Source: a bacterium (GTDB lineage Bacteria > UBA8248 > JACPRG01 > G963555815). Taken from it: a stretch of DNA of 64,000 nucleotides. Below the pieces are notes generated by a model, which had not been told where the DNA came from, ran no database searches, and saw nothing but the letters and a program-made list of their open reading frames with translations. Location of the stretch: the NCBI GenBank assembly GCA_965218795.1, contig OZ244653.1, positions 2,368,001 through 2,432,000 on the forward strand. The letters are read 5' to 3'. Both the position numbers and the translations under genes were made by a program. Each line of letters opens with the position of its first letter. Positions within the stretch are counted from its first letter, which is position 1. This document shows, piece by piece, positions 37,439 through 62,991 of this stretch.

Positions 37439-39751
37439 TTAATTCCCAACGCGTACCTCCCCCGACACCAGCTTCGGCAGCAGCGTGTCACGCAGGGCAG
37501 CGAGGGTACGGGATTCTGTAATGCTGGACCTGATTCTCGCATCTAGCGGCCGAGCGCATGAATCGAACACATTAACGATGCTAGGGTCTGGTTCAATCAC
37601 CCGCAAGGCTTCAAACTGACTCTTGTTGATAGCACCGAATACTGTCCCTGTATGCTCATATTCTCGGAGTCGCCCCTGAATCCTCCAAGCAGAATAGTAG
37701 GTGAATGGTATCGTATCTAACTTGTGCCTCAGCGCCGCCACGCCTCGACCGATACAACATCTTTCCCAAGCCATGTTGATATCCCCTACGGGTGCGCGCA
37801 CGCTAACGAGGGTATCCGCGGGCTGGGCAATGCGGGTTGGAGCGGTACAGAACTTGCGATTTTCAGGATAACGGAAACCAAAGTCAGACCGGCCCTGGAA
37901 GAAAGGCAAGCCTTCACCGTGTTCGTTGTAGGTGCTGCCTGGCGGTGACTGTCCCATCGTTAGGTCGAAGCACTTCCCCAATGCCTTAACCTCCCACCCC
38001 TCCGGGATCTCGCCCAGTTCGGAATCCACAAAACTATCCGGAAACAAGGCCGCGATCTCTTCGCCCATGCCGTCAAGATAGGCGCGGGCGCGTTCGACCG
38101 TCCAATCACTCCCCCCTGGAGGGGGACTCGCAGAAGCCGAGCCGTGAGGCGACGGCTGATGCGGTGGGGGGAACCCCCTCCCCGAAAGACTGTCGTCTTT
38201 CGACCCTCCCTCAAGGGGAGGGTGATGCGTCAGTGCGGCATAAATGCTCTCCAGCACCCCGAAGCAGTTCTCGAAGACTTCATTGTTCCAGAAGCGCAGG
38301 ACGCGATAGCCTCTTTGCCGCAGAAATTCCTCGCGCTCGCGGTCGTGGGCTTTTCGTTCCGCGTGGCCGCCGCCGTCGAGTTCGATCAGCAGCTTTTGGG
38401 AGATGCACGCGAAGTCCACGATATACGGACCGATGGGCTGTTGGCGGCGGAATTTGTGGCCGTCCAGTTGTTTGTCGCGCAGGCAGTGCCAGAGGAGACT
38501 CTCCGCGTTGGTCTGGTTGCAGCGGAGGGTTTTGGCGTTTTGCAGGGTCTGTTGGGTGTATCGGCGCTTGATTTCCCCCCACCTGTTCGTCCCCCCACCG
38601 GCTCGGCTGCGGACTTCGTCCTTGCCTTGCCGACTCCCCCTCAAGGGGGGAGTGATGGATGGCGTGGCGTTCGAGGGCGGCCTTGGCCGACTCCCTATCG
38701 GGAGAGGAGTGGTGTCTGAAGGGGCCGCATCGGTGGACCGGGCTTTGGCCGACTCCCCCTCAAGGGAGGAGTGAGCGGCGGCGTGGCGCTTGAGGGCGGC
38801 CTTGGCGCGGACGGGGTCGAAATCGACGAACCAGGACTTGAACAGGGCCCGGGCCATGGCCTCCAGGGTCTCGTTCATCCGCCGGTTCAACTCGATCTTG
38901 TCGTCCAGCGTGCCGAGGACATGGGCGATGGCGCGTTGTTCAGGGAGGGGGGGAAGAAGGAAGCGAAACCGCTTGATGCGTTCAGGCGATGTGTGCCTAA
39001 CGGTCGTCCCGGTGGCGCTTGCAAGCACCTCATGTCGATACTCTGCGCTACACATGACATAGTAGAGATATCTTACGTTTAATGACAGTTTGTCTTTGAT
39101 CACGACTTTTCCAAGCCGCTGGTTGTGCAGATAGCGGCGTCCTTCTGGATACGTCGATACAAATGCCGGATAACCTAGGGTATCCGTCTGCTTGCTCAGA
39201 TCGGTCATTGTAACGAGCAAATCGCCGTTACTAAGAATGAACTCTTCGGGGGGTGAACCATCGTAATATTTGAACTTATCGTCTTTAAATCCGCCACCAA
39301 TTGCGAAGTTACCAGGCGTCAGCAATACATCACCGCATTCTTCTTCGTGGATAAACGCTCCTTTGAAAGCGAACCCATGCCTTATGTCGATTAAATCAGC
39401 AAGCGATGTTTGAACCCACTCGCCCGCCACACCCTGCTCTTTGTTCTCCGCCAACACCACGTGCTCCGCTTCAATCTGCTTGCGGAACTGCTCGGGCACG
39501 TCGTCCCAAACGAACAGATCCACGCGAAAGGGCAGACTGCTTTCCTCGAACGCTTCCCTGAGATCGGACACCCGGCGGTCCTGCTCCGGCGTAGCGAAGA
39601 CCACCAAGTCGAGATCGGATTGCGGGCGGGAGGTCCACTTGACCCGGGAGCCGTAGACCCAGGCTTCAGTGTTCGGCAGATGCCGTTCGAGCAGCGCCAG
39701 AAGGGTTTTTCGCTGATCCGCGGTGATGTCGATGGGCCGGTCTATTCCCAT
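37439..39751 (-). CDS. hsdS: Type I specificity subunit with N-terminal minimal nucleotidyltransferase (MNT) and internal DUF559 insertion
   Basis: N-terminal WVYGSRVKW..SDLDL..ESSLPFRVDL (MNT); TRD1; PPLPEQRAIAHVLGTLDDKIELNRRMNETLEAMARALFKSWFVDF; insert; FPDSFVDSELGEIPEGW; TRD2; LAALRDTLLPKLVSGE. Confidence 0.93.
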   Translation of the reverse strand: MGIDRPIDITADQRKTLLALLERHLPNTEAWVYGSRVKWTSRPQSDLDLVVFATPEQDRRVSDLREAFEESSLPFRVDLFVWDDVPEQFRKQIEAEHVVLAENKEQGVAGEWVQTSLADLIDIRHGFAFKGAFIHEEECGDVLLTPGNFAIGGGFKDDKFKYYDGSPPEEFILSNGDLLVTMTDLSKQTDTLGYPAFVSTYPEGRRYLHNQRLGKVVIKDKLSLNVRYLYYVMCSAEYRHEVLASATGTTVRHTSPERIKRFRFLLPPLPEQRAIAHVLGTLDDKIELNRRMNETLEAMARALFKSWFVDFDPVRAKAALKRHAAAHSSLEGESAKARSTDAAPSDTTPLPIGSRPRPPSNATPSITPPLRGSRQGKDEVRSRAGGGTNRWGEIKRRYTQQTLQNAKTLRCNQTNAESLLWHCLRDKQLDGHKFRRQQPIGPYIVDFACISQKLLIELDGGGHAERKAHDREREEFLRQRGYRVLRFWNNEVFENCFGVLESIYAALTHHPPLEGGSKDDSLSGRGFPPPHQPSPHGSASASPPPGGSDWTVERARAYLDGMGEEIAALFPDSFVDSELGEIPEGWEVKALGKCFDLTMGQSPPGSTYNEHGEGLPFFQGRSDFGFRYPENRKFCTAPTRIAQPADTLVSVRAPVGDINMAWERCCIGRGVAALRHKLDTIPFTYYSAWRIQGRLREYEHTGTVFGAINKSQFEALRVIEPDPSIVNVFDSCARPLDARIRSSITESRTLAALRDTLLPKLVSGEVRVGN
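38106..38774 (-). mobile_element. DUF559 (Vsr-like endonuclease) module flanked by five ~25-bp palindromic repeats, in-frame within hsdS
   Basis: AKTLRCNQTNAESLLW..KFRRQQPIGPYIVDFAC..IELDGGGH..GYRVLRFWNNEV. Repeats of consensus CGACTCCCCCTCAAGGGGGGAGTGA at 38106-38130 (minus), 38201-38225, 38631-38655, 38688-38712 and 38750-38774. Confidence 0.85.
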
Positions 39752-40158
39752 GTCGTCCCGCTCATGGTCTGATAGAGGCCGATGGCGTCGTCGATGAAGG
39801 CGGGCATGAGCTCCAGGCAGGATTGCGCCTTCTCGCCACTGTAGTCGTGGGACGTATCGACGCGGGCGTCGGCGTAATGCAACCATTGCTCCAGCGGCGC
39901 GGCGAACAGGTCGTTCTCGTACGCCAGTTTGAAGATGGGTTTGGGGCTGTTGGGCGCGTCCGCGATGCCCAGATCTTCGATCAGGTATCGTTTCAACACC
40001 TTCCACAGACAGTCGTAGCAGGTCTCGAAACGCTGAATGACCGACTCGGCGACGGCTTCCTGGGTCAAATCGGGCAGGGAGTCGTCAGGTTCTCGATAAT
40101 TTTCGTACTGCTCCTCCAGCCGCTTGAGCGACATGCGATATTTGTCGTAATCGATCAT
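39742..40158 (-). CDS. HEPN-domain protein (HI0074 / nucleotidyltransferase substrate-binding family)
   Basis: VIQRFETCYDCLWKVLKRYL..SPKPIFKLA..W....ARVDTSHDY (Rx4HxY); overlaps the MNT-hsdS start. Confidence 0.9.
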   Translation of the reverse strand: MIDYDKYRMSLKRLEEQYENYREPDDSLPDLTQEAVAESVIQRFETCYDCLWKVLKRYLIEDLGIADAPNSPKPIFKLAYENDLFAAPLEQWLHYADARVDTSHDYSGEKAQSCLELMPAFIDDAIGLYQTMSGTTWE

Positions 40159-40181
40159 GCTCTACCTTCGGCTCTCTTTCA

Positions 40182-40423
40182 TCAATTGGATACCCGACGG
40201 AGAACCAGGGCCTCGACGACCTCGGCGCCGTCCGGGGTCCCTTCCGCCGGATGGAGCGGCTCTCCGTGCCGTCCCTCCCAGTCATGTGTACCGGTGTTCA
40301 GACTGATCTTCGTTATGGAGATCTGCCGCGGAGACAGGTCGTCGCAGCCATCTTCGTAGCCGTTCACCACCACGCGCAGGTCGGCGGGATATTCTCGAAG
40401 CAGGTCGATCAACTCACTGACTA

Positions 40424-40427
<4 letters not shown>
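40182..40427 (-). CDS. Small hypothetical protein
   Basis: [31 protein letters not shown]; ATGA overlap with hsdM; GGAGGAG RBS. Confidence 0.75.
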
Positions 40428-42052
<1,625 letters not shown>

Positions 42053-45047: not shown

Positions 45048-47204
45048 TCAGGGCCTCACGCTGACCTCGTCGTAAAGCAGCGGGTCGTCGGGCAGGGCGA
45101 CCTCCACGTCCAGCAGTTGCCCCGTTCTCGGGCACATGAAGAGCCGCAACTCGAACCGGCCGGTGATCGAGCGGCGCGGACCGGCATCGGACAGCGGCGC
45201 CTTGGCCAAGGCGCAGTGGTCCTTCCAGTTCCGTTCGATCAGACAAAGAACGGCGCCGCTCTTTGTGCATTGAACGTACGTCCCGCCTTCGGCCCCCCGA
45301 ACCGCCCGGATCTCCTCACTCAGATTGTAGACAGGCGCATCTTCGGGGATATCGATGGACAGACCTTGACCGTTGACCATGGCCGCTTTCAGCCGGGTCT
45401 CCCGCACCTCCGCCCTGCGGCGTTCCGTGGCCTCCAGGTCGACTCGGAAATCGTCCGAGAGGGCAACGCCATAGGCTCTCTCCGCCCATTTTCGCGAGAC
45501 CAGATCGTTCATGACGTCGACGCGCACCCGTTCCGGATCCCTTTCCAGGGGGTCGCCGTATCCGCCCCCGCCGCCGAAACACCCGTGGAGCATCTCGCCC
45601 GCTTTGAGCTCGTACATCCCCCAGGCCACGGGCGTCCTTTGGCCGTCGAGGGTCTCCCTGTCCCTGGGGAAACCCTCATTGTTCAGGGTTTCATACACGT
45701 CCTGTCCTTGAACCAGGCCGAAGTCCGTATTGTTGCCTGGAAGCCCGCCGTTGAACCCGAGGCAGCGGGTGAATTCCGTCCCGGTGCAGTACAGGACGAG
45801 GTTGACCCGATCGTCCTTTGCGCCGTGGGCGGTGATACCGTACTCGGCCGTCATCCCGCCGCGGAAGCGGCCCGGTCCCGCCGAGTCCTTCTGGAATCGG
45901 TGAAAGGTGTAGAGGATAGGGAGATTGAGCTCTTCAAACTCGATGTTGGGCGTCCTGTTGACCGGGTTCGGAATGCAGCCGGCGTAATCCACACCGTCGG
46001 CGAAGGTGCGTGCGCCCCCGCAGCCGCCGAGATTCTGTGTGATCGTCGATACGACGAGACGGTCGCCCTTGTAGCCCGATACGGTGGTCGGCGTCTGGGC
46101 CCCCTGCCATACGCAGGTCGCTTCTTTCCGATAAGCGTCGCTCGCGACGAGCATCTTGGAGATCGACTCCAGCGCGACGGCGTTGATCAGTCCGATACCG
46201 GTCAGTGTAGCGAGACAATTGGGCGCTGGACGGGTGCAGTTGACCAGGCTCCCTTCCGGCACATGCATCGTCACCGGCTTCATCATCCCGTCATTCCACA
46301 GGATGTCGTATCCGAGGAGCGGGAAGAGGGGCGCCAGGATGCCGCCGTAGCTTCCCCAATAGGCCGAGTTGAACGGGACGGGTGCCTGGGGACTGGTCCC
46401 CGTGAAGTCGAAATGGACCCCTTCGCCCTCTTTGGTCATGGCGAGTAGGACGGTGTAGATCGATCCCTCGGCCTCGATGTAGTGACGGGTTCGCCAGGTG
46501 CCGTCCGGCAACTCGCCGAGCCGCTTGCGGAGAAGGCCTTCGGACTCGTCGATCAGCCCCTGAGAGACCGTGTCGACCGTCTCCTGGCCGTACTTGTCGA
46601 ACAACTCCGTGAGGCGCTCCTTGACCGTCGTGTTGGCGGCGATTTGGGAGCGGAGGTCGAGAGCGACGGTGTCGGGTACCCGGACCATGTTGAGCAGTGT
46701 GCACCACACGTCCTTCCGGATGACGCCGCGATCCACGACCTTGATGCCCGGGCACATGATGCCTTCGTGATAGATCTCTCGCGAGTGGGGCGCGAAGCCG
46801 CCTGGATTGATGGCGCCGATATCCCGAAGGTGGACGAAGTTGGCGCTCCAGGCCACCAGATTGTCCCGATAGAAAATGGGGGAGACGACGTAGGCGTCCG
46901 AGCTGTGGAGCGCGGCGACGTAGGGGTCGTTGATCATGAAGACGTCGCCGTCATGGATTCCGGGGTTGTCCGCATACTCCCGCAGGATATGGCGGCAGGC
47001 CTCGCCGGCCCCGGGGAGGGCGTGCAGGTAGCCCATCACGGCCATCAGGAGGCTGCCGTCCGCCCGGTATAAGCCCACGAGAAGGTCGTGCCCCTCGGTG
47101 GTGGACGAAGACCCGGAGATGTGTTTCAGGGTAATCACCGCCTCGTCGACGATGCGCATGAGCTTGTGGCGGATGATCTCGAACGTAAAGGGGTCCACCA
47201 TCAT
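45048..47204 (-). CDS. Hydantoinase B/oxoprolinase subunit fused to an acetone-carboxylase-gamma-like domain
   Basis: GDVFMINDPY..HSSD..HLRDIG..GPGRFRGG..GGGGYGDPLERDPERV; C-terminal VQCTKSG..NWKD..FMCPRTGQLLDVE. Confidence 0.9.
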   Translation of the reverse strand: MMVDPFTFEIIRHKLMRIVDEAVITLKHISGSSSTTEGHDLLVGLYRADGSLLMAVMGYLHALPGAGEACRHILREYADNPGIHDGDVFMINDPYVAALHSSDAYVVSPIFYRDNLVAWSANFVHLRDIGAINPGGFAPHSREIYHEGIMCPGIKVVDRGVIRKDVWCTLLNMVRVPDTVALDLRSQIAANTTVKERLTELFDKYGQETVDTVSQGLIDESEGLLRKRLGELPDGTWRTRHYIEAEGSIYTVLLAMTKEGEGVHFDFTGTSPQAPVPFNSAYWGSYGGILAPLFPLLGYDILWNDGMMKPVTMHVPEGSLVNCTRPAPNCLATLTGIGLINAVALESISKMLVASDAYRKEATCVWQGAQTPTTVSGYKGDRLVVSTITQNLGGCGGARTFADGVDYAGCIPNPVNRTPNIEFEELNLPILYTFHRFQKDSAGPGRFRGGMTAEYGITAHGAKDDRVNLVLYCTGTEFTRCLGFNGGLPGNNTDFGLVQGQDVYETLNNEGFPRDRETLDGQRTPVAWGMYELKAGEMLHGCFGGGGGYGDPLERDPERVRVDVMNDLVSRKWAERAYGVALSDDFRVDLEATERRRAEVRETRLKAAMVNGQGLSIDIPEDAPVYNLSEEIRAVRGAEGGTYVQCTKSGAVLCLIERNWKDHCALAKAPLSDAGPRRSITGRFELRLFMCPRTGQLLDVEVALPDDPLLYDEVSVRP

Positions 47205-49303
47205 GTTTCCCTCTCCCGTAACGGGATGATCACGTTCTTATAGGCGTCGAGCGAAGCCCTCTGACCGGGCTGGACCACGATGGTCGTCACCGGGGTCACG
47301 ATGATGGCCGGACCCATCACCTCATGTCCGTGTGTCAGGAGGTCGTACCGGTACACGCCGGTGTCCTCTTTCGCCCCGTCGAAGAATACGGGGCGGCGGT
47401 GGATCAACGCCTGTTCGGGGTCCGCTCCGGTTTCTTCATGCGTTCTGAGCTCGGATTTGGGCAGCCGGCCGACCGCGCGTAACTGAAAGCTGATGATTTC
47501 CATTCCCGCCTCTTTGTAAGCGGACCCCTTGCCGTGCTTGCGCTCGTAAAGTTCTGCGAACTCCGCGTAAACCTTCTCCAAGACCTCCTCCGTGATCCTC
47601 CCCCGAGGCACCGGCGTAATGACCTCGTGCATCTGGAGACGGAATCGCAATCCGACCGTCCGGTGGAACTCGATGCTCTCTTGGGTGAACCCTTCCCGCC
47701 CCATTTCCTCGCGGGCTGATTCCTCCAGATCGGCATAGACCCGGTTGACTTCATCCAGGTCGGGCGGGACGGGCATGTGCTTCGTCACGGGGTATTCATG
47801 GGTGACGTTGGCCGTGACGATTCCGAAGGCCCCGTTGACCGAAGCCGTCGCGGGTACGATGATTTTCTCGACCTCCAGTTCCGGGGAGAAGGCCCCTGCG
47901 TGAATGGACGCCGCGCCCCCATACGAGAAGAGGACATAATCCCTTGGGTCCAGCCCCCGCTCCACGGTGACCTTGCGGACCAGATCGGCCATCTGGGCGT
48001 TGACCAGCCGATAGACCGAAGAGGCCGCCTCTTCCACGCCCATCCCCAGCGGGTCGGCCACCTTTTGACGGAAGAGGTCCTCGGTTTTCTTCCGGTTGAG
48101 ACGCATCCTGCCGCCGAGGAAGTAGTCGGGCTCGAGGTACCCGAGGATAAGATTGACGTCCGTCAGGGTGGGCTCTTCGCCGCCCAGGTCGTAACAGATC
48201 GGGCCCGGGGAAGCGCCGGCGCTCTGCGGCCCGATTCGGGGAAGGTTCGTCCGCGGCTCAACCCAAATGATACTCCCCCCTCCCGCCCCGATGGAGACAA
48301 TGTCGATCTTGGGGATCAGCGAGTGGTACCGGAGGATGGTCGATTCCCAGGCGTATTCATACCGTCCGTCCGTGAGCACGCCCACCTTGAAGCTCGTGCC
48401 ACCGAGATCGCACCCGATGATGTTGGGGCACCCGAGCAGGTTTCCGGCGAACTGGCTCCCGATGACCCCGCCGGCCGGACCCGACTCGATGAGGCTGACC
48501 GACCGGTCCGCGGCCTTGGGGATGGGGAGGAGCCCCCCGTACCCCTGCATGATCAAGGCGTGCCCCTTGAACCCGAGCGCTGCGATCCGTTCCTCCAGGC
48601 CGAGGAGAGATTTCCGAATTTCCGGCGCCAACGTAGCGTTTAACGCAACGGTCGACGTCCGCTCGTACTCGCCAATCCGCGGGGCAATCTCGGAGGACAG
48701 GGTGACGGGGACGTCCGGGTAGCGTTCGCGAATGACGGCCGCGGCCCGGGTCTCGTTCTCCGGATTGCGGAAGGACCAGAGGAAGCACACGCCGATGGAT
48801 TCGGCGCCCTGATCCAGCAGGGATTTCATGGCAGCGCCGACGTCCTCTTCATCGACGGGGACGATGATGCGGCCCCAGCTGTCGCTTCGCTCTCGGACCC
48901 CCCGGGTCCACTTCCGGGGAACGAGCGGCGGGGGCTTGTCCGTCATGACCGGGTGCATGATCTCCTCGTCCGAAAGCCCGGCCCAGCGCCCGTATCCCCC
49001 TCGGGTGAGGACGAGGGTGTCCTCGAACCCGCGCGTCATCAGAAGCCCAACCTTTGCCAGCTTTCTATTGATGAGAGCGTTTTCAGCGGCCGTTGTTCCC
49101 AGCAGGAAGGCGTCCGCCTCCGCCATGAGATCTTCCAGGGCGAGACCGAGGTTTTCGGCCGCGGTCTGAACGCTGTTCAACGCGCCGACCGAGAAATCCT
49201 GGGGCGTGGAGAGGGCCTTGCCCTGCGTAATCGATCCGTCGGACTGAAGGAGGACCGTGTCCGTAAACGTCCCTCCCACATCAACACCGATGATGTAGGT
49301 CAT
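47201..49303 (-). CDS. Hydantoinase A/oxoprolinase ATP-binding subunit
   Basis: GVDVGGTFTD; EYERTST; ESGPAGG; DLGGTS; IGAGGGS; GPQSAGASPGP; SYGGA. Confidence 0.95.
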   Translation of the reverse strand: MTYIIGVDVGGTFTDTVLLQSDGSITQGKALSTPQDFSVGALNSVQTAAENLGLALEDLMAEADAFLLGTTAAENALINRKLAKVGLLMTRGFEDTLVLTRGGYGRWAGLSDEEIMHPVMTDKPPPLVPRKWTRGVRERSDSWGRIIVPVDEEDVGAAMKSLLDQGAESIGVCFLWSFRNPENETRAAAVIRERYPDVPVTLSSEIAPRIGEYERTSTVALNATLAPEIRKSLLGLEERIAALGFKGHALIMQGYGGLLPIPKAADRSVSLIESGPAGGVIGSQFAGNLLGCPNIIGCDLGGTSFKVGVLTDGRYEYAWESTILRYHSLIPKIDIVSIGAGGGSIIWVEPRTNLPRIGPQSAGASPGPICYDLGGEEPTLTDVNLILGYLEPDYFLGGRMRLNRKKTEDLFRQKVADPLGMGVEEAASSVYRLVNAQMADLVRKVTVERGLDPRDYVLFSYGGAASIHAGAFSPELEVEKIIVPATASVNGAFGIVTANVTHEYPVTKHMPVPPDLDEVNRVYADLEESAREEMGREGFTQESIEFHRTVGLRFRLQMHEVITPVPRGRITEEVLEKVYAEFAELYERKHGKGSAYKEAGMEIISFQLRAVGRLPKSELRTHEETGADPEQALIHRRPVFFDGAKEDTGVYRYDLLTHGHEVMGPAIIVTPVTTIVVQPGQRASLDAYKNVIIPLRERET

Positions 49304-55854: not shown

Positions 55855-56649
55855 TTAGCGTGAAAATGCGATTTTCGAAGCAAAGGAAACGACGAACAGA
55901 ACGGTTGCCGTCACGACGATGGAGGGACCGGAAGGCGTGTCCCACCGCAGAGAGCCGAAGAGGCCGCCGATCACCGCGAGCGCCCCGATCCCAGCGGCCA
56001 CCACGGCCATCTGTTCCGGCGTCTTCGAGAACCGACGCGCCGAGGCCGCCGGGATGATCAGGAGGGACGTCACGAGAAGGATGCCGATAATCTTCATCGA
56101 GATCGCAATGACCATGGCGATCAAGAGCATGTAACCCAGACGCACCGCCGCGGTAGGAACCCCTTCCGCCCGAGCCAGATCCTCCTGGACGGTGCTCGCG
56201 ATGAGCGGCCGCCAGAGGAATGCCAGCGCCGCGATGGCGATGATTCCTCCGCCCAGCACCCAATAGAGGTCCGCCCGCGTCACCGCGAGGATGTCCCCGA
56301 AGAGATAGCCGATCAGATCCACGCGAAGCCCTTCCATCAGGCTGAGAACGACGAGACTGACGGAGAGTGCGGTGTGCGTCAGGATACCGAGCAGGGTGTC
56401 CGTCGCGAGCTGCTTCTGCGCCTGAAGACCGGCCAGCACGACGGCGAGGATCAGGCAGGTGGCGACGATCCCGAAGGTCAGGTTGATCCCCAGCAGAAAA
56501 CCCAAGGCGATGCCCAGCAGCGAGCTGTGGGCGAGAGAATCACTGAAGTAGGCCATCCGGCGCCAGATGACGAAACACCCGAGCGGGCCGGCCGTCACGG
56601 CCACCCCCAGGCCGGCGATCATGGCGCGAAGAAAGAAATCCTCGAGCAT
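55855..56649 (-). CDS. znuB: Zinc ABC transporter permease
   Basis: GPLGCFVIWRRMAYFSDSLAHSSLLG; DTLLGIL; YLFGDIL; DTPSGPSIV. Confidence 0.95.
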   Translation of the reverse strand: MLEDFFLRAMIAGLGVAVTAGPLGCFVIWRRMAYFSDSLAHSSLLGIALGFLLGINLTFGIVATCLILAVVLAGLQAQKQLATDTLLGILTHTALSVSLVVLSLMEGLRVDLIGYLFGDILAVTRADLYWVLGGGIIAIAALAFLWRPLIASTVQEDLARAEGVPTAAVRLGYMLLIAMVIAISMKIIGILLVTSLLIIPAASARRFSKTPEQMAVVAAGIGALAVIGGLFGSLRWDTPSGPSIVVTATVLFVVSFASKIAFSR

Positions 56650-57476
56650 CAAGGACCCCCGGCAGAGGAGGACTCTTCGAAGACCGGACGGTCCCGGTCC
56701 TCCTCCGGCGCGACGGGAACGACCCGTCCGTGCAAATCGTGGTGATGGTCATGGGTGTGCGCATACACCGCGATATTTTTCGCGGCCGCCGGACCGAACA
56801 GCGCTACGTATTCAGGGTGCCGGTTGACCGTCTCGGGATGCCCGGAGCAGCAAACGTGCTGATTCAGGCAGATCACCCGATCCGTAGCGCTCATCACCAA
56901 GTGGAGGTCGTGCGAGATCATCAAGACGCCGTAGCCCCGGATGGTACGGAGGCGGACGATCAGATCGTAAAGCTCGAATTGGCCGGTCATGTCAATGCCC
57001 TGTGCCGGCTCGTCCAGGACCAACAGATCCGGATCGCGTAAGAGCGTTCTCGCCAGCAGGACCCGCTGCTGTTCGCCGCCCGAGAGCCCGTGGATGGATT
57101 GGTCGATGAGGTGGAGCACGCCGACCGCATCGAGCGCGCGGTCGATCTCGGCGCGGCCGGCGGGGCGTGTCAAGGTTATCAGGCGCCGGACGGTCAGGGG
57201 GATGGCCTCGTCGACCTTGAAATGCTGAGGGAGATAGCCCATCCGCAGATTCGCGCGGCGGCGCAAGCTTCCCTCCGTCGGCCGGAGCAACCCCATCAGG
57301 ATGCGGACCAATGTGGTCTTCCCGGCGCCGTTCGGCCCGATCAGGCTAACGATTTCACCGGCTTGAACGGACAGGTCGACGCCGTGCAGAACCGTCCGCG
57401 GCCCGTAGCGGTGGGTGATGCCCGCCGCTTCGAGCAGGGGGGAGGGATCGACCGGGTTTCCAGACTCAACCATCAT
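56649..57476 (-). CDS. znuC: Zinc ABC transporter ATPase
   Basis: GPNGAGKT; LSGGEQQR; SHDLHLVM; CLNQHVCCSGHP; His-rich tail. Confidence 0.95.
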   Translation of the reverse strand: MMVESGNPVDPSPLLEAAGITHRYGPRTVLHGVDLSVQAGEIVSLIGPNGAGKTTLVRILMGLLRPTEGSLRRRANLRMGYLPQHFKVDEAIPLTVRRLITLTRPAGRAEIDRALDAVGVLHLIDQSIHGLSGGEQQRVLLARTLLRDPDLLVLDEPAQGIDMTGQFELYDLIVRLRTIRGYGVLMISHDLHLVMSATDRVICLNQHVCCSGHPETVNRHPEYVALFGPAAAKNIAVYAHTHDHHHDLHGRVVPVAPEEDRDRPVFEESSSAGGP

Positions 57477-57960
57477 GGCAATCCGGACAAAGGCCGCGCA
57501 CCTCGACGACCGATGCGTTCACGGTAAAGCCCACGCGGGAGGCGCCCTGGCTGATGGCCCGGCCGATGGGCCGTTCGTTCAGCTCGGCCATGACGCCGCA
57601 GCCGTCGCAAATCAGGAATTGGGCGTCGTGGGGGGTGCCCGTGGCGCCGCATCCGACATAGGCGTTCAGACTGGCCAATCGGTGGACCAGCCCCTGTTTC
57701 ATGAGGAAGTCCAGAGCGCGGTACACGGTGATCGGAGCCGGCGCCCTCCCTTTCCTTTCCATCCGATCAAGGATGTCGTAAGCCCCAATCGGGGCGTGGC
57801 TGTCCCAGACCCGCTCCAGTACCTTCTTTCTCAGCGCGGTCAATCGCGCCCCTCGGCGCGCGCAGACTTCCTCCGCCTTCAGGAGCGCGTCCGCAACGCA
57901 TGAGCCGTGGTCGTGACCCGGTTGTGGAAAGGCCTTGGCGAAATGTTGAGCATTCTTCAC
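57466..57960 (-). CDS. zur: Zinc uptake regulator (Fur family)
   Basis: HDHGSC..GARLTALR..GAYDIL..PITVYRALDFL..HRLASLNAYVGC..FLICDGC..GLCPDC. Confidence 0.93.
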   Translation of the reverse strand: MKNAQHFAKAFPQPGHDHGSCVADALLKAEEVCARRGARLTALRKKVLERVWDSHAPIGAYDILDRMERKGRAPAPITVYRALDFLMKQGLVHRLASLNAYVGCGATGTPHDAQFLICDGCGVMAELNERPIGRAISQGASRVGFTVNASVVEVRGLCPDCHDG

Positions 57961-57996
57961 GAGCCTTCCCTATTCCAGATGATTCATTGACTCAAC

Positions 57997-58009
57997 GTTA
58001 TAATATAAC
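57997..58009. promoter_or_regulatory. Zur box
   Basis: Palindrome GTTATAATATAAC (GTTATAWTATAAC) between divergent zur-znuCB and znuA. Confidence 0.88.
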
Positions 58010-58070
58010 TATTTGATCGAAAGATCGATCTGTTTTGGTCGTGTGAAATGAAACCAGGGGGAAACACCGA

Positions 58071-59009
58071 ATGAAGCGTGTCGTTCAAATCATCTCCATC
58101 TCCGTCATGGCCTTCGGGTGGGCTGTCATAGGGATTGATGCCGGAGAGAAACGGCTCCGTGTGGTCGCGAGCATCAAGCCCGTTCATTCTCTTGCCGCGG
58201 TCGTCATGGAAGGCGCCGGAAGCCCGCGGCTTCTGGTTCGAGGGGCCGCCTCTCCCCATACCTATACCCTTCGGCCTTCGGACGCGGCGGCCCTCCAGCG
58301 GGCCGACCTCGTCTTCTGGGTGGCGGAGGCGATGGAAATGTTCCTGACGAAGCCTCTGGCCGCGCTCCCCTCGAAGGCGAGGGTGGTTCAATTGTCGGCC
58401 GTTCCCGGAATCACTCTTTTGCCTGTGCGCGATGGTGGCTTGTGGCCGGAGGAGGAGGAGGGTGACCACCACGAGGAGGAGGGTTCCATGGACATGCACA
58501 TCTGGCTTGACTCCGAAAACGCGGAGGCGATGGTTCAGGCCGTGGCCGCGGCCTTGGGTGCGGCCGACCCGGACCGGGCCTCGCTCTACCAGTCCAACGC
58601 GCGGCGGGTACGGCGGCGGATCCAGGCCATGGATGCCGAGCTCCGCTCACGGCTTCGACCGGTCGGAGACGTGCCGTACGTCGTCTTCCACGACGCCTAT
58701 CAGTATTTCGAGCGCCGGTACGGACTCAATCCCGTTACTTCCATTTCGATGGGGTCCGGAAAAAGCCAGGGAGCCAGGCGCATCCTGGAAATCCAAAAGT
58801 GGATCCGGAGGGCCCGGGTGGTCTGTGTATTTGCCGAGCCCCAGTTCAAGCCCGCGTTGATCGAGACCGTGATCGAGGGGACGGGGATCCGAACGGCGAC
58901 TCTCGACCCCCTGGGGGCCGACCTCGATCCGGGTCCGGAGCAGTATTTTCAGATGATGAGGAACATGGGTGAATCCCTGCTGCAAGGTCTTTCGGGGAAG
59001 GCCCGATGA
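58071..59009 (+). CDS. znuA: Zinc ABC transporter substrate-binding protein
   Basis: VVASIKPVHSL; SPHTYTLRPSD; DMHIWLD; VFHDAYQYFE; CVFAEPQF; LDPLG. Confidence 0.95.
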   Translation: MKRVVQIISISVMAFGWAVIGIDAGEKRLRVVASIKPVHSLAAVVMEGAGSPRLLVRGAASPHTYTLRPSDAAALQRADLVFWVAEAMEMFLTKPLAALPSKARVVQLSAVPGITLLPVRDGGLWPEEEEGDHHEEEGSMDMHIWLDSENAEAMVQAVAAALGAADPDRASLYQSNARRVRRRIQAMDAELRSRLRPVGDVPYVVFHDAYQYFERRYGLNPVTSISMGSGKSQGARRILEIQKWIRRARVVCVFAEPQFKPALIETVIEGTGIRTATLDPLGADLDPGPEQYFQMMRNMGESLLQGLSGKAR

Positions 59010-59750: not shown

Positions 59751-61373
59751 ATGGGCAATTGGGAAGTCTCTGTACCTTCTGATTATTTGAAGATCCCCGA
59801 GTCCTTCAACATGACGCACGCGGTTTGCGGCCGGTGGGTCGAAGAAGGACGGGGGGATGACGAGGCGCTTGTCTACGGAGAGGAGCGGATCACCTTCGGG
59901 CGGCTCGACGACCGGTTCCGCCGATTCGCCCGTTCCCTTCAGGATATGGGCGTCGGGCGCGGGGATACCCTCGTTTTCCGCTCGCACAACCATCCGGAAT
60001 ACGTCGTGGCGGCGCTTGCGGCCCTCCGAATCGGGGCCGTGCCCGTTCTGAGCAGCTCCCTTCTCGGCCCCCGGGAGCTCGAGCACGTTGTCGGCAACTC
60101 TGACGCCAAGATGGTGTTGACCACACAGGATCGGCTGGAAGCCGTGGAAGAGATTCGGGGCCAATGCCCCACACTGGAGAATGTCGTTCTCTTCGACGGA
60201 GACCGGGCCGGAACCATTCCGTTTTCCCTGTTGGCCTCGGCGGAGCCGCTGGACGTGACCGGCATCGAGACCTCTCCCCGGGACTTGGGGTTCATGCTGT
60301 ACACTTCGGGGACGACCGGCCTGCCCAAGGGGATTGTTCACACCCAACAGTGGCTGATCGGAACCGGCGACCCCATCGGCAAACTGGTCCTCAAGCTCCG
60401 ACCGGATGACCTCTGCTGGCACCTGGCCGAGTTCAGTTTCATGTATTCCTGGGGCCACGGGTTGATGTACCCCCTCTATTGCGGGACACCGGTCTTCATC
60501 AATCCTGAGCGTTCCAGGCCCGAAGACGCCTTCGGGGTGATCGCCGAAAACGGGATCACCGTGCTTTCCACCGTCCCTACTGCGTATCGGATGATGCTGG
60601 CCGTCGAGGGGGCGGAGGACCGCCACGACCTGAGCCGCCTGCGGGTTTGCGACAGTTCCGGCGAGACCTTGCCGCCGGAGACCCACCGGGAGTGGAAGAA
60701 GCGGTTCGGGAGCGACATCCTGGACGGGATCGGAGTGTCCGAGGCGCAGAAGTTTTGCAGCAACCTGGCGGGGGAGCCGATCAAGCCGGGGTCGGCGGGA
60801 AAGGTGTTTCCCGGCTGGGTGGTGGAGATTCACGACGACGAGGGACGCCCGCTGCCGTCCGGCGAAATCGGACGCGTGGCCGTGCGGGATGACGGGCCGG
60901 GTCTCTTCATCGCATACCGCAAGATGCCCGAGAAGTGGGCGGAGAACCATATCGGCTCTTGGTACTACACGGGGGATCTGGCCTCGTTCGACGAGGACGG
61001 CTACTTCTGGTACGTGAGCCGCGGGGACGATCTGATCAAGAGTCGGGGCTACCTCATCTCACCGAAGGAGGTCGAGGAAACCTGCATGGAGCATCCCGGG
61101 GTGCTGGAGGCGGGCGTCATCGGCGTCCCCGACACGGACATGGGCCAGCGTATCAAGGCCTGCGTTGTCCTCAAGTCGGGAAGGACTCCGGATCAATCCA
61201 TGGCGGAGGAGATCCGCGAGACCCTCGGCCAGCGGATCGCTCCCTACAAAGTCCCCAAGGTCATCGCGTTTCTGGAGGTGCTCCCCAAGACGCAAACTGG
61301 TAAGATTAAACGCAAGGAGCTCAGACATCGGTCGGAAGCGGAAGAGAAGGGGACGCACGTCTACTCTTTCTGA
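59751..61373 (+). CDS. Acyl/aryl-CoA synthetase (AMP-forming)
   Basis: YTSGTTGLPKG; DGIGVSE; YYTGD; SRGDDLIKSRGY; LPKTQTGK. Confidence 0.93.
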   Translation: MGNWEVSVPSDYLKIPESFNMTHAVCGRWVEEGRGDDEALVYGEERITFGRLDDRFRRFARSLQDMGVGRGDTLVFRSHNHPEYVVAALAALRIGAVPVLSSSLLGPRELEHVVGNSDAKMVLTTQDRLEAVEEIRGQCPTLENVVLFDGDRAGTIPFSLLASAEPLDVTGIETSPRDLGFMLYTSGTTGLPKGIVHTQQWLIGTGDPIGKLVLKLRPDDLCWHLAEFSFMYSWGHGLMYPLYCGTPVFINPERSRPEDAFGVIAENGITVLSTVPTAYRMMLAVEGAEDRHDLSRLRVCDSSGETLPPETHREWKKRFGSDILDGIGVSEAQKFCSNLAGEPIKPGSAGKVFPGWVVEIHDDEGRPLPSGEIGRVAVRDDGPGLFIAYRKMPEKWAENHIGSWYYTGDLASFDEDGYFWYVSRGDDLIKSRGYLISPKEVEETCMEHPGVLEAGVIGVPDTDMGQRIKACVVLKSGRTPDQSMAEEIRETLGQRIAPYKVPKVIAFLEVLPKTQTGKIKRKELRHRSEAEEKGTHVYSF

Positions 61374-61645
61374 CCGAGGTGGCTTCCTTTTTCGGACGAG
61401 ACCACTGAATGGATAACATCGATTGCCGGGGGGATATTGTAAAAATAGTCCCCTCCGAGACCCCCCTCGGAAAACTTTGACGGCCAAGCCGTTAGGGTTT
61501 GCCTGCTCGCGGCGGATTTCAGGTGGACGGACGTTGCCTCATTCGGCGCGGAACGAAGAGAAGGGCCTGTTGCCATGGAGCGCAGGCCCTGGGAATTTGA
61601 GGACAGGTCCGGCCTGAACCTCAGCCGAGCCAGGGAGCATCGCGG

Positions 61646-61951
61646 ATGAACAAATTTCTTGTCCTCGCTCGTCCTGCGAAACCGTTGCCCGAGGGCGCGA
61701 ACATCCAGAAGGCCATCGACCATCTGGATTCCTTGCGCGAGAAGATGAACGCCGAAGTGTACACCCTCGTCGAGGACGACGGTTGCGGCTTCGCAATTCT
61801 CATTGACGTCAAGACGCACGATGAGCTGATGGCCGAACTCTTCAAGAACCCGCTGGGCCGCTGGGGAACCTATCAGGTCTATCCCCTGGGGACGCTGGAA
61901 GGGGAGCGGGAGGCCATGGAGGCCATCGGGTTCGAATTCAATCTATCTTGA
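61646..61951 (+). CDS. Small DUF3303/muconolactone-isomerase-like alpha+beta protein
   Basis: MNKFLV..GFAILIDVKTHDELMAELFKNPLG..TYQVYPL; GGAG RBS. Confidence 0.65.
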   Translation: MNKFLVLARPAKPLPEGANIQKAIDHLDSLREKMNAEVYTLVEDDGCGFAILIDVKTHDELMAELFKNPLGRWGTYQVYPLGTLEGEREAMEAIGFEFNLS

Positions 61952-61982
61952 GCCGGCCGAGAGAGCCGGAGGAGGACGTGAC

Positions 61983-62258
61983 ATGCCGCAATACCTGGTC
62001 ATCAACCAGCCGCCCGCCCCGATTCCCAGGAACGCCGACATCCAGGGGTGAGTGGAGTACTTTTCCTTGCTGGAAGCAAGGGGAAAGGCGAAAATTTTTC
62101 CTATCGTCGGCATGAAGGGATACGCCTCCATCTTCGAGGTGTCCTCCCATGAGGAACTACTCAAGCTGTTGAACGGCAATCCCATGGCGCCGATTGAAAC
62201 GTACACCATTCACCCGTTGAGCGAATTTCCGCCCACATCCATTGCCAAGGTGGCCTGA
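61983..62258 (+). CDS. Paralogous small protein with an in-frame UGA at codon 23 (candidate selenoprotein, or pseudogene)
   Basis: GGAGGAGG RBS; MPQYLVINQPPAPIPRNADIQG(UGA)VEYFSLLEARG..GYASIFEVSSHEELLKLLNGNPM..YTIHPL aligns with the upstream paralog on both sides of the UGA. Confidence 0.7.
62060..62087 (+). promoter_or_regulatory. Candidate bacterial SECIS hairpin
   Basis: TTTTCCTTGCT-GGA-AGCAAGGGGAA: 11-bp stem (2 G-U pairs) with a G-first loop about 20 nt after the UGA at 62049-62051. Confidence 0.5.
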
Positions 62259-62352
62259 AGACGCGCCGGTTGACGAGAACGTTCGAGCAGGGAGGGCCGA
62301 CCGGGCTTCCGGCGGCCCTCTTTTTGTATGTTGGCGGGGAAAGGATGACGTG

Positions 62353-62991
62353 ATGGCGGCGGGGCTGAAAACGATGGGGCCGGACGAGGTCGAACGGGCA
62401 TCCGCCGAGGGGGCCGTTGTGCTCGATTTCCGCGACCTGGAGGACTTTGCGGCCTCGAGGATCCCCGGGGCAATCTTCATCGCTTTCAACGCGCGGAGCG
62501 TCCCCAGGCACGTGCCGGCCGTCGCGCCGCCGGGCTCCCGCGTGGTCTTGATTGGAGATGAGGACCGTGTCGGGCAAATCCATGCCTGGTTTGAATCGGC
62601 CGGCGGATATGAGGTGCTCGGCTGGATGGAAGGGGGTATGGAGTCCTGGACCGCGGCCGGAAAACCCGTGGAACCGCTTCGAAGTCTCTCCGTCGAAGAG
62701 TTGCACCGTCGCTGGAGCGGGGACCGGGAATCGTTCGAGCTGATCGACGTGCGCGAGCCCTTTGAATGGAACCTGGGGACCATCGAGGGATCGCGGCTTG
62801 TATCCCTGGGCGGGCTTCTCGAAAAAATGGGAGAGCTTGCGACCGACCGGGAACTGGTCTTCATTTGCGAGCAGGGGATGCGGAGCGCCACGGCCGCCGC
62901 CCTGTTCTCCGGCCGGGGATTTCAGAAAACGGCCAACGTGGCGGAGGGATTCGGGGCTTGGTTCGATGCGGGGTTCCCGGTCGTCGAGTGA
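62353..62991 (+). CDS. Tandem rhodanese-domain sulfurtransferase
   Basis: VVLDFR..FAASRIPGA..EGGMESW; LIDVREPFEW..CEQGMRS..ANVAEGFGAW. Confidence 0.88.
   Translation: MAAGLKTMGPDEVERASAEGAVVLDFRDLEDFAASRIPGAIFIAFNARSVPRHVPAVAPPGSRVVLIGDEDRVGQIHAWFESAGGYEVLGWMEGGMESWTAAGKPVEPLRSLSVEELHRRWSGDRESFELIDVREPFEWNLGTIEGSRLVSLGGLLEKMGELATDRELVFICEQGMRSATAAALFSGRGFQKTANVAEGFGAWFDAGFPVVE

Follow-up and report, generated by a model that had tools for sequence, protein, structure and literature searches.

A muconolactone isomerase-like gene with an in-frame UGA likely encodes a selenoprotein absent from a 2026 table

Does a UGA codon inside a small bacterial gene end that gene, or does it encode selenocysteine (Sec)? 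The stretch of DNA analyzed here (the window, 64,000 nucleotides) raises this question with a gene that we call subunit A, which runs from an ATG at position 61983 to a final TGA stop at 62256 to 62258 and holds a further TGA at codon 23 (Table 1). We conclude that this UGA is likely read as Sec in a 91-residue protein, in which Sec23 would serve as the nucleophile of a two-subunit barrel of the muconolactone isomerase (MIase) type. The support for Sec is comparative in kind. The initial annotation had proposed a Sec protein from the letters of the sequence, and this reading is now supported by a UGA and a hairpin that are kept in relatives, by Cys homologs and by a complete Sec machinery.

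Table 1. Features of the subunit A locus (positions in the window)
Feature	Position	Strand	Remarks
AMP-forming acyl/aryl-CoA ligase	59751..61373	+	TIGR02262 benzoate-CoA ligase family, 352 bits, under the cut-off of 375
Subunit B gene	61646..61951	+	Paralog of A with 101 aa; its residue at the Sec column is Ala in the window genome; adjoins or is fused with A in other loci
Ribosome-binding site GGAGGAGG	61968..61975	+	7 nt ahead of ATG 61983; from sequence
Subunit A gene	61983..62258	+	91 aa on read-through, muconolactone isomerase fold, predicted Sec23
In-frame UGA, codon 23	62049..62051	+	Sole TGA inside the subunit A frame; Cys in orthologs, Glu27 in CatC/ClcF
Predicted bacterial SECIS	62061..62085	+	Stem of 11 bp; GGA loop (62072-62074) 20 nt past the UGA
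Intrinsic-terminator-like hairpin with T run	62292..62325	+	Between A and the rhodanese gene; similar hairpin in G001
Tandem rhodanese	62353..62991	+	C-terminal domain with Cys loop CEQGMRS; start codon inferred

RESULTS AND DISCUSSION

The reading frame and its UGA

The strong ribosome-binding site, the ATG at 61983 and the single internal TGA described in the initial annotation are all present in the sequence, and a GGAG or AGGAGG occupies the matching position ahead of gene A in three relatives. The similarity to the adjacent paralog (subunit B) that it had seen on both sides of the TGA was recovered as well, with 25 of 82 residues identical between B and read-through A (E value of 2e-16) in an alignment that spans both sides. 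A TGG in the raw reads had been named as a reason to drop the Sec reading. Contigs of runs X5, X7 and X14 (the last one labeled as a sponge metagenome) span the A locus, and among the differences listed for them there is no change at the TGA and none within 62046 to 62093. A 169-nt contig of RNA run X19 stops 3 nt past the TGA and is uninformative on expression.

Conservation of the UGA and Cys at the same column

Gene A was carried by 4 of the 61 genomes searched, namely, the genome of the window (G000), G001 from the same genus, and G004 and G006 from a second genus, and all four have TGA at codon 23. Identity to G000 was 90% for G001 and 79% for both G004 and G006. Between G000 and G001, dN/dS was 0.06/0.91 on the 5′ side of the TGA and 0.04/2.1 on the 3′ side; both halves of A are under purifying selection, with silent sites near saturation and amino acids kept. 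The phylum-wide search matched 6 of 51 genomes. G002 and G005 were rejected as carriers, as their MIase-like genes are weak, generic ones that lack the Cys column. No A homolog was matched in two further phyla, represented by only 1 and 2 genomes. Since the four UGA genomes belong to one family, the UGA probably reflects one evolutionary event. A single-protein scan of metagenomes gave 137 pattern matches, none of them confirmed.

A profile of the four read-through proteins drew 26 representatives from among 1.84 billion proteins, with 14 Cys, no Trp, 8 other residues and 4 gaps at the Sec column. All 13 representatives that have the A-type signature and cover the column carry Cys, and the non-Cys residues belong to proteins of the paralog type or to more distant MIase-like proteins. 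At the DNA level, the column is TGC or TGT in 12 of 12 metagenome loci. The tabulation of homologs that had been proposed at the outset, with UGA plus hairpin or Cys favoring Sec and Trp speaking against it, came out on the side of Sec; orthologs have one or the other, and Trp never occurs.

Gene callers report 68-residue products for A, and several database proteins start just past the column (P0003 to P0005, P0048 and P0061 one residue past it and P0006 six residues past it). These starts look like those of miscalled selenoprotein genes, the putative UGA of P0048 and P0061 being read from the protein starts alone. The Sec reading also explains the stubs of 63 to 68 residues that represent gene A in databases.

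A SECIS-like hairpin behind the UGA

Positions 62061 to 62071 pair with 62075 to 62085 in 11 unbroken pairs, including two G-U pairs (-12.5 kcal/mol). The initial annotation had described an 11-bp hairpin with a GGA loop, about 20 nt downstream and made of uncommon codons, and this description holds: the distance is 20 nt, and the stem codons are minority codons in their own genome, accounting for 27% (TTT), 11% (TTG), 8% (GCA), 8% (AGG) and 18% (GGA) of their synonym groups. All four rules of the consensus bSECIS model, as laid out in the accessible part of PMC13188914 and applied with our own script rather than bSECISearch, hold for this hairpin. By itself the hairpin proves little, because its folding energy is unremarkable compared with shuffles (z of -0.65 to -1.5) and a loose bSECIS rule was satisfied by 724 of 1395 read-through candidates in a crude, noisy scan of the same genome.

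An unbroken stem of at least 11 pairs with a G-led loop was found behind only 6 of 4500 sampled in-frame Trp or Cys codons. Stems measured 11 to 12 bp in all four UGA genes versus 2 to 6 bp in all 12 Cys genes. A silent change was seen in 1 of 9 conserved hairpin codons (codons 26 to 34) compared with 46 of 61 elsewhere (Fisher P = 0.0004, for kin that are not independent). The 11 pairs are invariant across the four UGA sequences; hence, no compensatory changes are visible and the stem shows no covariation. On this comparative evidence, SelB would very probably bind the hairpin 20 nt downstream and deliver Sec-tRNA to the UGA.

In codons 18 to 22 (window positions 62034 to 62048), just 5′ of the UGA, no silent change occurs in any of the four genomes either. 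Perhaps an RNA structure of greater length, or a context signal, extends upstream into them. These frozen codons are not fully explained and are a point against our main reading.

Sec machinery and genetic code

In G000, selA, selB and selD scored above their cut-offs and a tRNA-SeC was found, so that the complete set (selA, selB, selC and selD) that the initial annotation had proposed to look for is present. The selD gene of G000 itself contains a TGA, and selB and tRNA-Sec (selC) occur in five of the five family genomes tested. The genetic code is standard, because TGA closes 1143 of the 1798 long ORFs in G000, where it is the commonest stop. The sole UCA-anticodon tRNA among 57 ARAGORN calls is the tRNA-SeC.

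If the TGA were a real stop, gene A would be a pseudogene or else a 22-codon leader followed by a restart at the GTG behind the TGA, giving a 68-residue protein. This is very improbable. The products reported by gene callers have that length, TGA is the stop of most long ORFs (1143 of 1798, as above) and TGA and GTG abut in three genomes; however, codon 24 of G001 is GTA, which is no start codon, the 68-residue product would lack strand 1 of the modeled fold, silent sites are saturated and amino acids kept on both sides of the TGA, and every full-length ortholog has Cys. We give even less credit to a variant genetic code or a suppressor tRNA by which the UGA would be translated as Trp, Gly or Cys. 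TGG, TGC and TGT are each one change away from TGA and orthologs do have Cys, but TGA closes most long genes, the only UCA-anticodon tRNA is the one for Sec, no Trp occurs in the column and the SECIS-type hairpin is kept only together with UGA. With Sec as the preferred reading, A works like an ordinary bacterial selenoprotein gene: all parts of bacterial Sec decoding (SelA, SelB, SelD, tRNA-Sec and a bSECIS in the coding region) are present, the mechanism is no different and the part that is new is the protein family.

Fold, active site and family assignment

With the TGA read as Trp, subunit A matched the Pfam family MIase (PF02426) at 27.7 bits against a cut-off of 26.7, and the same search gave no DUF3303 (PF11746) match at E values up to 1. 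Of the DUF3303/MIase-like label first given to the gene, the MIase part therefore stands and the DUF3303 part does not; in ESM Atlas features, the Cys homolog P0047 lies near DUF3303/MIase clusters (0.90). The only NCBIfam match was TIGR03221, with 26.5 bits against an equivalog cut-off of 130.6, and no selenoprotein model matched. The structure model of A (pLDDT of 87) has ClcF as its best fold match (TM of 0.78, Z of 12.4, rmsd of 2.9, 85 residues aligned), followed by TftG and HI0828 at a Z of 9.4 among the 48,161 chains searched.

Sec23 aligned on Glu27 of CatC/ClcF in three MAFFT modes and in hhalign, with three genes annotated as catC and one gene of R. opacus 1CP (residues 34 to 89 of which are the ClcF chain) as register references. 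This putative register comes from sequence alignment and not from a residue-level structural overlay. We take Glu27 to be the catalytic base of CatC/ClcF, and Roth et al. are said to have assigned that role to it in ClcF in 2013. At His87, Asn52 and Trp40, which presumably are further positions of the ClcF pocket, A has Phe82, Tyr47 and Ala36, respectively, and A-type proteins conserve Tyr47, Asn66, Glu72 and Tyr74. The title of PDB entry 3zo7 names ClcF E27A with substrate. Sec23 or Cys23, which aligns in helix 1 where CatC/ClcF have Glu27, would quite likely act as a nucleophile. Because a selenolate is strongly nucleophilic but a poor base, a change from acid-base to covalent catalysis is likely.

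The fold of carboxymuconolactone decarboxylase (CMD/AhpD) is all-helical. Sulfur oxygenase reductase, at about 300 residues, is an iron enzyme whose reactive Cys bears a persulfide. CMD/AhpD-like selenoproteins (PF02627, with CxxU), which are listed in the 2026 selenoprotein table, are like A in name only; A has a lone Sec and is a subunit of a predicted alpha+beta barrel. Sulfur oxygenase reductase is likewise a ferredoxin alpha+beta barrel protein according to the accessible part of PMC4835899. No conserved 2-His-1-carboxylate set was seen in A, and sulfur oxygenase reductase is absent from the best 50 structural matches listed for the single-domain A model, which does not amount to an exclusion.

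Subunit A is not a member of CatC/ClcF. It shares fold, length, about 28% identity and the helix motif V-x-S-H-[ED]-E-L with ClcF (PDB 3znj, 3znu, 3zo7 and 4fpi) and CatC (PF02426, TIGR03221, PDB 1mli) but has Sec or Cys where these have Glu27, and neither catA nor catB is among its identified neighbors. Furthermore, ClcF/CatC form a homodecamer, as stated in the accessible part of PMC4835899, whereas A is paired with its paralog B.

Paralog B and a probable A/B barrel

The initial annotation had cautioned that the paralog has Ala rather than Cys at the Sec column. This caveat falls away, because B is a separate subfamily that has Cys there in three related genomes (G001, G004 and G006; L014-L016, 4663-4965). 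Across the B family (n = 38), the column holds 29 Ala, 4 Cys, 4 Ser and 1 gap. The A/B tree, with its long branches and unreliable root, was used only for separating A from B. In G004 and G006, B reads IQGC, an echo of IQGU in A, whereas G000 and most of the distant B proteins have Ala; the Cys of B is possibly a second reactive site or a trace of gene conversion.

B lies 5′ of A in the four UGA genomes and six Cys loci; in five loci the two are fused, with B behind A. Of the 12 Cys loci, 11 have B next to A or joined to it, and the twelfth ends within the gene. Proteins P0045, P0050 and P0056 are A+B fusions, and P0046, P0055 and P0061 are A+B+rhodanese fusions. The profile search had yielded forms of 190 to 315 aa; no longer fused forms of 378 to 2000 aa were found, nor was there a plasmid match for the A+B fusion. 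Barrels of this superfamily arise from homodimers, heterodimers or fusion (PMC4835899, accessible part), which makes an A/B barrel the natural reading, and the fusions point to a heteromer rather than a homodecamer. A and B would thus probably form a single alpha+beta barrel in which only one half is reactive.

The single-sequence model of the triple fusion P0046 was set aside (pLDDT of 50). In P0017, a frameshifted B, the tail is a translation of the first part of A in other frames and takes in the letters that surround the TGA and the hairpin; the assembly of a close strain is probably in error here.

Gene neighborhood

The CoA ligase precedes B and the rhodanese lies 3′ of A in all four UGA genomes. 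The rhodanese fusions (P0046, P0055 and P0061) represent three separate 50%-identity clusters and have an intact Cys loop. In L027, L028 and L030, the fusion is followed by an amidohydrolase and then by a CoA ligase, and the best G000 match of these ligases is the window ligase, by a small margin (367 versus 346 bits); the ligase link thereby appears to hold in two distant groups. A Mo-hydroxylase subunit lies upstream in L029 and L030, and multi-domain RidA is found in L031 and L034, the latter also with a PaaY-like gene. There is no rhodanese among the identified neighbors of the 12 Cys loci, and six of these loci have RidA, gamma-carbonic-anhydrase-like or ABC neighbors in place of the ligase.

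Several other neighbors were noted. In G004, a YeeE/TsuA-type sulfur transporter follows the rhodanese (L016, 6163-7161), and in G001, a GrdB-like fragment (PF07355) lies two genes past it (L014, 6676-7134). A long inverted-repeat element separates A from the rhodanese in G004 and G006 (L015 and L016, 5274-5520). The spacer between the ligase and B is 272 nt long in G000 and holds an inverted repeat (61374-61645), versus about 40 to 80 nt in the relatives. Elsewhere in the window, ordinary genes were recognized by eye from translations, namely, zinc ABC uptake genes with a Fur/Zur-type regulator (55855-59009), a hydantoinase/oxoprolinase-like pair (45048-49303) and type I restriction-modification genes (37439-42052).

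Possible reactions of the predicted Sec enzyme

Our preferred, though tentative, reading of the chemistry is a step that moves sulfur on a CoA-activated acid: the ligase might activate a small aromatic or heterocyclic acid, and Sec23 might attack a sulfur-bearing intermediate or take sulfur from the rhodanese, giving a selenenyl-sulfide that could be exchanged with the rhodanese Cys. The terminator-like hairpin that G000 and G001 have ahead of the rhodanese, the rhodanese-free Cys loci and the small margin of the ligase match count against our main reading. The breakdown of furoate and thiophene-2-carboxylate provides a model that proceeds through a CoA ligase and a Mo-hydroxylase to a five-membered (thio)lactone, a ring of the type that an MIase pocket binds; our search of the literature on the thiophene/furoyl-CoA pathway found nothing relevant. 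It is unlikely that the locus represents a new enzyme class in which the Glu base of the MIase pocket gave way to Cys and then to Sec, and in which the A/B barrel, with the rhodanese and the CoA ligase, would strip sulfur from (or add sulfur or selenium to) a five-membered ring acid, e.g., a (thio)lactone derived from thiophene- or furan-carboxyl-CoA. If this is true, uncultured bacteria would turn over organosulfur compounds by a route not yet described.

Next in rank, Sec could be inserted without any sulfur being moved, which we consider somewhat unlikely. Sec23 would then add to an unsaturated lactone or enoyl-CoA and leave again (cis-trans or double-bond isomerization), open a lactone via an acyl-enzyme, or displace a halide, with the rhodanese as a repair partner or a bystander. 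In maleate isomerase, a Cys adds to the substrate during cis-trans isomerization. The nearest solved folds (ClcF, MIase and TftG) act on small unsaturated or chlorinated rings, Cys loci adjoin amidohydrolase, Mo-hydroxylase, RidA and PaaY-like genes, and a terminator stands ahead of the rhodanese, all of which argues for such chemistry; against it stand the three 50%-identity clusters that fuse a rhodanese with an intact Cys loop and the rhodanese next to A in all four UGA genomes, with the YeeE/TsuA transporter behind it in G004. A thiol-redox, metal-binding or sensing role for Sec, instead of the turnover of an organic substrate, is improbable: it would agree with the many CxxU/UxxC candidates in G000 and with the statement, in the accessible part of PMC13188914, that most uncharacterized selenoproteins are thought to be redox proteins, but A has no second Cys, its Sec occupies the catalytic column in the pocket of an enzyme and its neighbors are catabolic.

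A likely selenoprotein family on an unexpected fold

The accessible part of the 2026 selenoprotein table (PMC13188914, Table 1, 119 families) has no row for MIase, PF02426 or DUF3303, and the word "muconolactone" is absent from the accessible content of the four deep-Sep supplementary files (PMC12013277). A full-text literature search for selenoprotein or selenocysteine together with muconolactone returned no paper on such a family. BSepDB, judging from the accessible part of PMC13326102, covers known families only. Subunit A is likely a selenoprotein family new to the 2026 table and to NCBIfam, on an unexpected fold. Nothing about its decoding is unusual, and reports of new selenoprotein families are fairly frequent. 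The prokaryotic selenoproteins in the catalogs are mostly redox proteins of the thioredoxin-like kind; A would place Sec in an isomerase/dehalogenase pocket, at the site of the catalytic Glu. The exchange of Sec and Cys points to the reactive residue in an entire, so far unstudied, Cys-dependent family from distant metagenomes, and the natural Cys forms make it testable.

Other in-frame TGA codons in the genome

In G000, 24 other read-through candidates were chosen by eye from their CxxU, UxxC, CxU or selD-type motifs. Their median stem was 7 pairs, and two of them share the GGA loop, at 20 and 23 nt behind the candidate Sec codon. Six further in-frame TGA codons of G000 contig C1 lack a CxxU/UxxC motif and are flanked on either side by coding signal (TGA at genome coordinates 821718 on the minus strand, 4919580 on the plus strand, 836932 and 4350220 on the minus strand, and 1380617 and 3682953 on the plus strand). 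Some of these six may be OsmC-, SelW- or MsrA-like selenoproteins, and others may be unlisted ones or noise.
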